Positions 776-27,513 of a stretch of 64,000 nt of DNA are shown piece by piece. The translations under genes and the position numbers were made by a program. Source of the DNA: an uncultured delta proteobacterium (GTDB lineage Bacteria > Myxococcota_A > Polyangia > Polyangiales > Polyangiaceae). Location: positions 128,001 through 192,000 of the forward strand of contig CAVQUB010000012.1 in the NCBI GenBank assembly GCA_963716725.1. Direction: 5' to 3'. Position 1 is the first letter of the stretch. Every line of letters starts with the position of its first letter. Under the pieces are notes generated by a model. The model was not told the DNA's origin. It saw only the letters and a program-made list of their open reading frames with translations, and searched no databases.

Positions 776-2608
776 ATGTGCGGCATCGTCGGCTACGTCG
801 GACCCAAACAGGCCGCCCCTATCCTGCTCGAGGGGCTGCGACGACTCGAATACCGGGGCTACGACTCGGCCGGCTTGGCCGTGCACGATGGCAACGAAAT
901 CGAGGTGATCCGCGCGGCGGGCAAGCTCGACAATCTCGCCAAGGCCCTCCAGCAGCGGTCGCTGGTCGGGAGCACTGGGCTCGGCCACACCCGCTGGGCG
1001 ACCCACGGGCGACCCAGTGAGCAGAACGCCCACCCCCACGCCGCGGGCGACGTCGCCGTGGTGCACAACGGGATCATCGAGAACTTCCTCGAGCTGAAGC
1101 ACGAGCTTCAGGCGAGCGGCGTCTGCTTCACCAGCGATACCGACACCGAGATCGTGGCACACTTGATTCACCGAGCCCTCGATGCTGGCGCAGCGAGTGT
1201 GTTCGAGGCTCTGCGTCAGACGCTGAGCCAGATCCGCGGCGCGTACGCCCTCGCCGTCGTCAGTCGGCGCGAGCCCGATCGGCTCGTGATTGCCAAGAAT
1301 GCGTCTCCGCTGGTGGTGGGCATCGGCGACGGCGAGACGCTCTGCGGCAGCGACATCCCAGCACTCCTGGGCAGCACTCGCGACATGTTGTTCCTCGAAG
1401 ACGGCGAGATGGCCGAGCTGACGGCGGGTGGGGTGCGTCTCGAGACGCTGGACGGCAGAGCCGTCGAACGAGCGCCCAAGCGCATCGACTGGAGCCCGGT
1501 GCAGGCCGAGAAGGGCGGCTACAAGCACTTCATGCTCAAGGAGATCTTCGAGCAGCCCCGGGCCGTCGAAGACACCCTGCGCGGTCGCGTCAACCTGGAC
1601 GAAGGCGACGTCGTCGAGGCAGAGCTCGGCATCGACGCCGACGCGGCACGCAACATCCAACGCGTGGTGCTGGTGGCTTGCGGGACGAGCCACCATGCCG
1701 CGCTGGTCGGGCGCTACTGGATCGAACAGCTGGCCCGCGTCCCGGCGCACACCGAGCTTGCCAGCGAGGTGCGCTACCGCGACCCGGTCTTTGGACCGAA
1801 AGACCTGGTCGTCGCCGTGAGTCAGTCGGGGGAGACGGCCGACACCCTCGCAGCCGTCAAAGCGGCTCGCGAAGGCGGCGCGCGCGTGCTCGCCATCGTC
1901 AACGTGCTCGACAGCGCCATCCCCCGCGCCAGTCAGGGCGCGCTCTACACCCACGCCGGGCCCGAGATCGGCGTGGCTTCCACCAAGTGCTTCACCACCC
2001 AGCTCGTAGCCCTCTTGCTGTTGGCTGTTCAGTTGGGGCGGCGTCGCGGCGCGCTCGATGCCGAGCGCGGGCGCGAGATCCTGCAGGCGCTCATGGAGTT
2101 GCCCAACGAGATGCGCTGGACGTTGGCACGCAAGGCCGACATCCACCAGGTGGCTCGCCACTGGCACAACGCCCCCCACATGCTCTTCCTCGGTCGAGGG
2201 CTCGGTTACCCCATCGCGCTCGAGGGTGCGCTGAAGCTGAAAGAGATCAGCTACTCCCACGCCGAAGGCTATGCCGCGGGCGAGATGAAACACGGCCCCA
2301 TCGCCCTGATCGATGAGCACATGCCCGTGGTCGTCGTCATGCCTCGCGATCGTCAGTACGAAAAGACGCTCTCGAATCTGCAAGAGGTTCGGGCGCGTGA
2401 CGGACAGGTCATCGCCGTCGTGACCGAGGGTGATACGGAGGCGAAGAAGCTCGCGCAGTGGGTGCTCGAGGTGCCCAAGATGCCGGAGCTCATTCAGCCG
2501 ATTGTGGCGGTGATCCCGCTGCAGTTGCTCGCGTACTACATCGCGGATCTCAAGGGCACCGACGTGGATCAGCCACGCAACCTCGCCAAGACCGTCACCG
2601 TCGAGTGA
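776..2608 (+). CDS. glmS: Glutamine--fructose-6-phosphate aminotransferase
   Basis: MCGIVG start at 776 (Ntn Cys), GHTRWATHG, C-terminal PRNLAKTVTVE. Confidence 0.98.
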   Translation: MCGIVGYVGPKQAAPILLEGLRRLEYRGYDSAGLAVHDGNEIEVIRAAGKLDNLAKALQQRSLVGSTGLGHTRWATHGRPSEQNAHPHAAGDVAVVHNGIIENFLELKHELQASGVCFTSDTDTEIVAHLIHRALDAGAASVFEALRQTLSQIRGAYALAVVSRREPDRLVIAKNASPLVVGIGDGETLCGSDIPALLGSTRDMLFLEDGEMAELTAGGVRLETLDGRAVERAPKRIDWSPVQAEKGGYKHFMLKEIFEQPRAVEDTLRGRVNLDEGDVVEAELGIDADAARNIQRVVLVACGTSHHAALVGRYWIEQLARVPAHTELASEVRYRDPVFGPKDLVVAVSQSGETADTLAAVKAAREGGARVLAIVNVLDSAIPRASQGALYTHAGPEIGVASTKCFTTQLVALLLLAVQLGRRRGALDAERGREILQALMELPNEMRWTLARKADIHQVARHWHNAPHMLFLGRGLGYPIALEGALKLKEISYSHAEGYAAGEMKHGPIALIDEHMPVVVVMPRDRQYEKTLSNLQEVRARDGQVIAVVTEGDTEAKKLAQWVLEVPKMPELIQPIVAVIPLQLLAYYIADLKGTDVDQPRNLAKTVTVE

Positions 2609-26435: not shown

Positions 26436-26513
26436 CGGCTCATCCTAGTGCCGCGCGGCAGAAGTTTCGCTGGTTTCTTTTCCGTGTGCGTGTCGTCGGT
26501 GTAACGGGGTGAC

Positions 26514-26950
26514 ATGATCGACTACAGCGCGTTCGCGGGCCGAGCGCACGGTGGTCGTCCGACGGTTCCGCTCGCGCTGAGGGCTGAAGAGCGCGCGCGG
26601 ATCGAGGAGGCGTTGCGACCCGCCAGGGCGGAGCAGCGGCTGGTTCGTCGGGCGCAGGCCGTGTTGATGATGGCGGACGGAGTGCCTGCGACGGACATCG
26701 CCCGGCTCCTCGGGGTGCACGTGCGCACGGTGGACGACTGGCGCAAGCGCTTCGACTGCGCGGCACCTAGCGAGAGACTGGCGGACGCCCCGCGCTCGGG
26801 ACGGCCGCCCTCTCTCTCTCGGACACCGTAGCGGCTCGAGTAGAAGCACCGACGACCTCGCGGCGAGGATCGACGCGTACGTCGCGTGGTATCTGCAGAC
26901 CAACCGACCCTTTCGCTGGTCGTACCGCCCCAAGTCGTGGGCCGAATCCA
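26514..26950 (+). pseudogene. IS630 transposase remnant (HTH part joined to extreme C-terminus; DDE domain missing)
   Basis: RRAQAVLMMADG...IARLLGVH.RTV..WRKRF...LADAPRSGRP, then STDDLAARIDAYVAWY...PFRWSY from ~26845. Confidence 0.85.
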
Positions 26951-27017
26951 GAAAAATCCCCTCACTTTCTGCGAAGAAAGCCGCAACTGTTTCGGAGTGA
27001 GGCCCGACCACACGGGG

Positions 27018-27513
27018 ATGGCACAGGAAGGGCGAAAGCTCGGAAGATTTGGGGATGGGACGGACGAGGTGATCGGTGCGCTGATCGAGGTGCATCGGCA
27101 TCTCGGTCCAGGGCTGATGGAATCCGCATATGAGGCCTGTCTATCTGCCGAGCTGTCCGAACGACGGCTCAAGTTCGAGCGGCAGCGACCGCTACCAATC
27201 CGCTACAAAGGCGTACACCTTGACTGCGCCTATCGCCTCGACCTGGTCGCTTCCAGATCGTATCCTCCTGGAACTCGAGGCGGTCGAGCGGCTGCTCCCG
27301 ATTTACGAAGCGCAGGTCATCACCTATCTGCGCCTTTCGCGGTTGCCCGTCGGCCTGCTCGTCAACTTCAACGTGACCGCGCTCAGAAATGGCCTGCGGA
27401 GGCTAACGCCTGACCACCCCAAATCCTTCCGCTCTTCCGCCCTTCCTGTGAGAGCCCAAATGAGCGCAGGTCTCAGGGGCGAATCCACTCGAACTTCGGC
27501 CGCGCGGCACTAG
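27018..27513 (+). pseudogene. GxxExxY protein (PD-(D/E)XK-like nuclease family), frameshifted at ~27253
   Basis: IGALIEVHRHLGPGLMESAYE...YRLDLV / ILLELEAV...AQVITYL...GLLVNFN. Confidence 0.88.
27022..27450. repeat. ~33-bp imperfect inverted repeats bracketing the GxxExxY core (27022-27054 and 27417-27450)
   Basis: cacaggaagggcgaaagctcggaagatttgggg versus reverse complement cacaggaagggcggaagagcggaaggatttgggg. Confidence 0.85.

Follow-up and report, generated by a model that had tools for sequence, protein, structure and literature searches.

MIC231 of Bacillus cereus, a mobile insertion cassette (MIC) related to IS231 and the IS4 family, reportedly combines IS4-family terminal repeats with a passenger gene, encodes no transposase, and is flanked by the target duplication of its cognate insertion sequence (IS). 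ISs that carry passenger DNA are referred to as transporter ISs. For the IS10 subgroup of the IS4 family, a size of 1200-1350 bp, CT ends, the YREK motif Y-(2)-R-(3)-E-(6)-K, and 9-bp direct repeats have been tabulated (Table 1, De Palmenaer et al. 2008, PMC2266710). The GxxExxY family (PF13366) has been entered as "Unknown, multiple transfers" (PMC3424549), and no paper on how GxxExxY genes move was found in a literature search. The locus described here lies in the window, that is, the whole 64,000-nucleotide stretch that was analysed, taken from contig CAVQUB010000012.1 of an uncultured member of the Polyangiaceae (own genome, G000). At this locus, a GxxExxY gene is contained in a 528-bp cassette, and the cassette in an IS630-family element. 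The interpretation favored here, at a probability of about 0.8, is that an IS10-type MIC inserted into IS630 and was then amplified by IS630-driven transposition.

The limits of the cassette were drawn from homology to free copies in a congeneric genome (G006), and those of the flanking duplications from the same homology and a census of junctions.

26949 to 27476, plus strand: transposase-less 528-bp cassette with IS10-type ends and the GxxExxY unit, 79% identical over its whole length to free 528-bp G006 copies.
26949 to 26969, plus strand: degenerate left terminal repeat of the cassette, CAGAAAAATCCCCTCACTTTC, identical at 14/21 bases to the perfect G006 repeat CTGAGGCATCCCCTCATTTGG.
27456 to 27476, plus strand: right terminal repeat of the cassette, CCAAATGAGCGCAGGTCTCAG, identical at 17/21 bases to the G006 repeat.
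26940 to 26948, plus strand: left 9-bp target duplication, GGCCGAATC.
27477 to 27485, plus strand: right 9-bp target duplication, GGGCGAATC.

The sole family match within the cassette is PF13366, and no transposase is encoded inside it. An earlier note on this DNA had proposed an 8-bp target-site duplication, and the 8-mer CGAATCCA is indeed present at both 26943-26950 and 27480-27487. A duplication does flank the insert, but it is not 8 bp long: homology to G006 defines 9 bp, of which 8/9 agree between the two sides. The exact 8-mer has six bases in common with this 9-bp duplication, and the direct repeat as such lengthens to 11/12 bases (GGGCCGAATCCA / GGGGCGAATCCA). Taken alone, the 8-mer is not significant, as it has four matches in the window versus 1.8 expected, and at least four were obtained in 14 of 100 shuffles. 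This frequency, and the single base at which the 9-mers differ, would suit an origin of the direct repeat by chance or as microhomology, with the DNA captured by illegitimate recombination. However, five G006 cassettes end at the same two bases and are flanked by different repeats of 7-9 bp, and the insert length of 528 bp is the same in G000 and G006, so that such an origin is highly improbable and close to refuted.

In G006, DNA matches to the composite cover the cassette part only, with no IS630. There are 33 cassette matches in this genome, with two full copies that are 98% alike; the 528-bp G006 cassette starts with CTGAGGCATCCCCTCATTTGG and ends with its exact reverse complement, forming perfect 21-bp terminal inverted repeats. 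The terminal repeat has 24 matches in G006 (18 of them exact) compared with 0 control matches, and all 24 fall in cassette-derived segments. Both ends are present in five copies, three of which have perfect 9-bp duplications.

G006 copy C34: flanking repeat GACGCGGCG, 9/9.
G006 copy C17: flanking repeat ATACCCGAC, 9/9.
G006 copy C28: flanking repeat AGGGTCGTC, 9/9.
G006 copy C8: flanking repeat 8/9.
G006 copy C4: only 7 bases in common.

Many copies in G006 are internal deletions that still hold both ends and duplications. These loci, where the GxxExxY unit stands alone, bear out the earlier note in that the unit is a separate insertion whose ends can be defined and which a target duplication flanks. 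No cassette match was found in four other congeners. Two end fragments on different contigs, G006:C34:1581 (L056) and G006:C9:94347 (L057), are both flanked by the 9-mer GGTGCGACC, as expected if one insertion had been split by recombination between copies.

The cognate IS family was recognized from the cassette ends. Their terminal pattern, at up to 3 mismatches, occurs in 29/251 genomes of the order, many of the matches falling at contig ends, and a reversed control pattern gave 3 matches. In one of these genomes (G154), an autonomous 1252-bp element has the ends CTGAGGGATCCCCTC... and CTGAGGCATCCCCTCAT..., a 9/9 duplication (GATTGTCGG), and a single open reading frame (ORF) of 386 aa. The encoded transposase scores 215 bits against NF033591 (IS4 family, cut-off 152), is also recognized by PF01609, and includes YGKRFTIEETFRDAK. 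The first 17 bases of the G006 cassette repeat are identical to the right end of this IS. Another genome (G193) has four 1254-bp copies, three with 9/9 duplications, which brings the perfect duplications to 4/5 autonomous copies in the two genomes. The G154 and G193 elements show all four features tabulated for the IS10 subgroup, from size and CT ends to the YREK motif and the 9-bp repeats.

The 528-bp cassette itself has the terminal repeats of a cognate IS, a passenger without a transposase, and a 9-bp target duplication, which places it among MICs and miniature inverted-repeat transposable elements (MITEs). It resembles MIC231, as the latter is reported, in having IS4-family ends, a passenger without a transposase, and the cognate target duplication; it differs in that its ends are of the IS10 subgroup and not of IS231, its passenger is a GxxExxY nuclease gene with hairpin arms of its own, and no cognate transposase was found in the two cassette-bearing assemblies. 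The G154 transposase is about 25% identical to the IS10A and ISVsa5 transposases on enterobacterial plasmids, and the ends of a plasmid IS10A-family element agree with the cassette at 15 of the first 17 bases. The likeness to IS10 and IS10A extends to the 9-bp duplication and the 5'-CT ends, as tabulated for the subgroup (PMC2266710). Unlike IS10 and IS10A, the cassette measures 528 bp and encodes no transposase, and the autonomous relatives in the order share only the 25% protein identity with IS10A. A 240-bp near-palindromic, gene-less MITE with IS10-type ends and a 9/9 duplication was also seen in a further genome of the order (G079:C90:1139-1378; L187 100-339); 16 ends of this kind occur there, and a search with the G154 transposase found nothing.

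The host of the cassette is a compact element whose left and right parts frame the insertion.

26445 to 27513, plus strand: IS630-family element, an internally deleted, non-autonomous 1069-bp copy with CTAG at both sides, from comparison with full-length copies.
26445 to 26477, plus strand: left terminal inverted repeat of IS630, 33 nt, 82% complementary to 27481-27513.
27481 to 27513, plus strand: right terminal inverted repeat of IS630, whose terminal CTAG contains the TAG that was the ancestral transposase stop, from inverted-repeat pairing and relatives.
26514 to 26831, plus strand: N-terminal transposase ORF, helix-turn-helix part, 105 aa (Pfam HTH_23, HTH_29, HTH_28).
26833 to 26948, plus strand: remnant of the transposase C-terminus (...DDLAARIDAYVAWYLQTNRPFRWSYRPKSWAE), just 3' of the internal deletion junction at ~26848, from full-length copies.

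Five full-length copies of 1736-1738 bp are present in the own genome and have an extra 667 bp at window position 26848. They encode the N-terminal helix-turn-helix ORF and, in another frame, an ORF of 298 aa that matches NF033545 (IS630, 183 bits, cut-off 100) and PF13358 (DDE_3, E 6e-24). The catalytic core is absent from the window copy. The placement of the insertion in an IS630 transposase, as the earlier note had it, is right for the C-terminal codons, but the transposase in the window belongs to a deletion derivative without the 667 bp of core. Membership in IS630, a family that inserts at TA and commonly within CTAG, rests on both the DDE transposase and the terminal inverted repeats with CTAG insertion: among the 32 loci of the composite, CTAG stands at every IS630 left end that is retained and at all right ends except those of two truncated copies, a possible TA duplication being indistinguishable from the CTAG. 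In its DDE_3 / NF033545 transposase, terminal repeats, CTAG insertion, and stop codon in the terminal repeat, the host resembles the IS630-family ISs that carry passenger DNA. A CCCTCTCTCTCTC run (window ~26800-26831) divides its transposase into two frames, with a shift of -1 from the first to the second. This split is seen in 4/5 full-length copies and in a cassette-free, 74%-identical element of G029 (L022 ~340-400), and programmed frameshifting or transcriptional slippage at the run is possible.

What the IS630 3' end looked like before the insertion can be read from related elements. A total of 86 related IS630 loci were examined (80 metagenomic and 6 from same-family genomes), and both the C-terminal ...PKSW and the right end are visible in 51 of them. 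The distance from the Trp codon to the IS end is 36-49 nt in 40/51. It is exactly 36 nt in the closest cassette-free relatives (L199, L201, L204, and L270; 86-90% aa identity), in which G(C/G)(C/G/T)GAATCC occurs once, immediately before the terminal repeat, and the reading ends -T-S-x-x-R-H-stop. In these elements the TAG lies within the terminal CTAG, in keeping with the claim that the transposase stop is situated inside the right terminal repeat. In the window, the last Trp-codon base (26940) is 573 nt from the IS end (27513). Removal of 537 bp, as had been suggested, leaves 36 nt and rejoins PKSWAES with TRTSAARH; because this spacing and the C-termini of the cassette-free relatives agree, the rejoined tail is taken as the ancestral state. 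The window cassette itself has 0 blastn matches in the 80 closest metagenomic IS630 loci. Capture of flanking DNA by IS630 through a new right end was considered and rejected, the sequence after the left repeat in the window being unlike a terminal repeat.

The insertion target is 28 bp inside the right CTAG, within the last eight transposase codons. The five innermost bases of the right repeat are part of the duplicated target, so the IS630 terminal repeat stayed contiguous. The transposase reading continues from ...WAES for 16 codons into the cassette; since only the tail would be lost, IS630 is proposed to have stayed mobile. An end of the G006 type (CTGA...) would put TGA in the transposase frame at once. 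The second cassette base in the window is A, which probably arose after the insertion.

The copy census illustrates how far the composite has spread. A search of the own genome with the 529 bases that separate the two 8-mers gave 32 long matches (465-529 nt, 94-100% identity) and 5 short ones, and all 32 long-match loci sit within this IS630. They fall into the following size classes.

1736-1738 bp: 5 copies.
About 1069 bp: 9 copies, one with a 125-bp duplication.
1253-1257 bp: 4 copies.
641-652 bp: 6 copies.
Other or truncated sizes: 8 copies.

The left junctions read GGCCGAA(T/C)C in 17/17 cases, and the right junctions (n = 31) read GGGCGAATC in 26, GCGCGAATC in 4, and AGGCGAATC in 1. This IS630 differs from other passenger-bearing IS630 elements in that its passenger is itself transposable and entered the last transposase codons, and in that deletion forms keeping the passenger outnumber the 5 full-length copies. 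The hairpin inside the cassette is a recurrent breakpoint: the six 641-652-bp forms join 26575 to 27011, and two truncated loci (G000:C2:111950-112453 and G000:C11:120644-121146) start abruptly at window 27009-27011, at the start of the inner arm, without the IS630 left part.

Altogether, the locus consists of three nested elements. The innermost is a GxxExxY nuclease gene between word-repeat hairpin arms of its own; gene and arms sit in the 528-bp transposase-less cassette with 21-bp ends of the IS4 family, IS10 subgroup, that is, a MIC. The cassette was probably moved in trans by an IS10-type DDE transposase, through a cut-and-paste reaction that staggers the target cut by 9 bp. One cassette would have landed at the 3' end of IS630, duplicating GGCCGAATC, without immobilizing it, and the IS630::cassette composite would then have spread to 32 CTAG sites, mostly as internal-deletion derivatives such as the window copy. 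The cassette's own ends may have decayed during this IS630-driven spread. The nesting, the number of copies, the empty sites in relatives, the free cassettes with their duplications, and the IS family of the ends are directly observed; the agent, an IS10-type transposase, and the order of events are what we infer from these comparisons.

Several observations weigh against this interpretation. The flanking 9-mers agree at 8/9 in every own-genome copy, leaving a one-base mismatch, and copy C4 in G006 has the short flanking match listed above. The G006 terminal repeat has 0 matches at up to 3 mismatches in the own genome, where the repeats are degenerate. Searches of G000 (84% complete) and G006 (73% complete) with the G154 protein gave no match to an IS10-type transposase. 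For the G006:C34 insertion, an orthologous empty site was not found, its flanks being unmatched in G000, G001, G002, G003, and G005. Finally, the empty sites proposed in the earlier note are absent among own-genome copies; they are present in related IS630 elements, but these are 79-90% identical in protein and not identical ones. In the own genome this IS630 has no copy free of the cassette, as 31/31 right junctions run from cassette to IS630 end. That all IS copies carry the cassette had been named as an outcome that would refute an insertion; however, it shows that IS630 moves the cassette here, not that the cassette never inserted, and the insertion event is not thereby disproved.

The passenger gene is located in the middle of the cassette.

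27060 to 27402, plus strand: GxxExxY (PF13366 / TIGR04256) coding region with a +1 frameshift at ~27255 and E-L-E for E-L-K; profile positions 4-68 at 27060-27254 and 69-116 at 27256-27402.

An intact own-genome copy scores 146.5 bits with TIGR04256 (cut-off 35) and E 3.5e-41 with PF13366, with the motif GLMESAY. Intact copies read E-L-K. The window copy lacks both an intact frame and the D...E-x-K of PD-(D/E)XK nucleases, the frame breaking at profile position 68/69 and E-L-E replacing E-L-K. The state of the gene across the 32 copies is as follows.

High-scoring single-frame match (at least 102 bits): 9/32 copies.
Weaker single-frame match (82 bits): 2/32 copies.
Split at profile position 68/69: 21/32 copies, the window copy among them.

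With the gene split in most copies, the IS630 spread did not need it. Over the longer term, between the G000 and G006 cassette lineages, the gene has been under purifying selection, as the domain core of an intact G000 copy has a dN of 0.12 and a dS of 0.57 to a G006 copy (dN/dS ~0.2).

The gene is enclosed by a pair of inner arms.

27015 to 27058, plus strand: left arm of the inner hairpin, with the purine-rich words CACAGGAAGG / GCGAAAG / CTCGGAAG, overlapping the start codon at 27020; 44 nt, 77% complementary.
27414 to 27457, plus strand: right arm of the inner hairpin, pairing with the left arm in the RNA fold.

The arms form the closing stem of the predicted RNA fold (z -6.7; 0/100 shuffles as stable). 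Between G000 and G006, two compensatory pairs are seen in the arms and none is broken by substitution, the only unpaired positions being gaps where one aligned sequence stops short; this is a comparison of two lineages only. The nearest GxxExxY genes of other genera have arms in a similar style: about three purine-rich words of 7-9 bases precede the gene, and their complement follows it. The sole GxxExxY gene of the own genome outside IS630 (G000:C14:2120-2464; L188 421-765) also has arms, at 133-164 and 915-948, with CACGCGGGG-type words. A second hairpin at this locus (910-949 / 1104-1143; 40 nt, 78% complementary) has one arm in common with the first and 154 nt between its arms.

To widen the comparison, 79 GxxExxY loci from many phyla (L095-L173) were fetched, of which 77 were usable. 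The arm signal is above the 95th percentile of a cross-locus null in 36/77 and above the null maximum in 12/77, and in 16/16 loci inspected in detail the arms lie in short spacers between neighbouring coding regions. In L127, L143, L158, and L121, for example, the GxxExxY gene lies between arms of the kind (T)TCACCACAGAG-CACAGAG-CACAGAG and the matching complement. By reading, the neighbours in the 16 inspected loci appear to be housekeeping genes (carA/carB, or upstream of gatB or trpG). In G060, read by eye, a GxxExxY unit comes directly after a stretch that resembles the first 40 residues of a four-helix-bundle protein and is truncated at the hairpin arm (L026 ~1520-1640, minus strand). No paper on hairpin-armed GxxExxY cassettes was found in a literature search; one paper that names GxxExxY does so as a passing annotation, and the title of another is about an algal virus. 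IS10-type ends as a general feature of GxxExxY genes were rejected: the pattern is absent from all 79 fetched loci and from L025-L027.

These data bear on whether the unit moves itself. The earlier note had seen in it a candidate non-DDE class of mobile element, and under such an explanation the GxxExxY PD-(D/E)XK nuclease would act on the cassette ends or hairpin arms and insert the unit. The purifying selection on the gene and the compensatory changes that keep the arms would fit this, as would the similar arms around GxxExxY genes in many phyla without IS10-type ends and the lack of a DDE partner in either the G000 or the G006 assembly. However, the outer ends and the 9-bp duplication are common to IS4-family, IS10-subgroup elements that bear a DDE transposase and to a gene-less MITE, the element spread despite a split gene in 21/32 copies, and many internally deleted G006 copies hold both ends and duplications. 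Self-movement is accordingly regarded as unlikely, and the proposal of a non-DDE class is not upheld.

The 3' spot of IS630 has also received other cargo. In 11/51 IS630 relatives with both landmarks, 555-893 nt separate the Trp codon and the end. These occupied relatives are L196, L198, L200, L220-L222, L227, L249, L263, and L266 on metagenome contigs, and L175 in G275. Among the ten metagenomic inserts, 8/9 of those profiled are above the cut-off for PF05635, the four-helix-bundle protein of 23S rRNA intervening sequences (IVSs). The L220 insert has no PF05635 match, and L221 has the same junctions and ORFs; read by eye, both seem to hold a broken four-helix-bundle gene, and the L175 insert appears alike to the four-helix-bundle cassettes. 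On contigs that stop before the terminal repeat, L235 and L257 are above the PF05635 cut-off and L197 is below it. Word-repeat arms, for example arrays of GTTGAC or CGTCCT, enclose the four-helix-bundle genes, which are found in both orientations, and the site comprises the same few bases as that of the window GxxExxY cassette, from the last Trp codon to the right terminal repeat. This use of one 3' spot by hairpin cassettes with a four-helix-bundle (23S-IVS-protein) gene, in close relatives of the window IS630, is a new observation; among the papers listed in a literature search, none joins IS630 with a four-helix bundle, an IVS protein, or PF05635.

It could be hypothesized that the IS630 3' end is a dedicated cargo slot, in which the GxxExxY cassette was exchanged with an earlier four-helix-bundle hairpin cassette. 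The recurrent inserts and their PF05635 matches favor this, and among the closest relatives the occupied outnumber the empty. The junctions argue otherwise. Most four-helix-bundle carriers have a W-S-S-stop junction (L198 and L227 differ), which points to possible common descent of the carriers that share it, and L220, L266, and L175 retain an inner, decayed copy of the IS end. As the window keeps the W-A-E-S reading of the empty lineage, and not W-S-S-stop, its GxxExxY cassette is considered a separate event. No foreign-arm remnant lies outside the CTGAGG-type ends, and without the 537 bp the spacing returns to exactly 36 nt. A swap of cargo at a dedicated slot is consequently regarded as very unlikely. 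The simplest reason for the clustering of cargo at one spot is survivorship, this being perhaps the sole stretch of a compact IS where both the transposase and the end are spared; targeted docking is the alternative.

In a more tentative vein, hairpin-armed small-gene units (GxxExxY and PF05635) might belong to one undescribed class of selfish cassettes that habitually ride DDE transposons, here within an IS10-type cassette and in close relatives at the 3' end of IS630 itself, with targeted docking on IS630, an idea that is possible but doubtful. By analogy only, the GxxExxY unit can be compared with 23S rRNA intervening sequences (S23p / PF05635) and REP-RAYT systems, which likewise have a small gene in a long-stem loop and a patchy distribution across phyla. 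Unlike these, it has no rRNA context and no HUH transposase, and its arms are arrays of 7-9-base words. If such a class exists, armed units may owe their persistence to a gene that benefits the carrier or makes the host addicted to it; the dN/dS of the nuclease gene during its travel in the cassette is the one given above.

GxxExxY genes are widespread and exchanged between phyla, and the IS10-type cassette within IS630 offers a concrete route for such exchange: gene and hairpin would be packaged in IS10-type ends, then in IS630, and multiplied by ordinary DDE transposition. Given this route, a flanking repeat around a GxxExxY gene is not evidence for a new transposition chemistry. The 32 copies, some with an intact and some with a broken gene, together with the free cassettes of a congener, make the locus a natural experiment.

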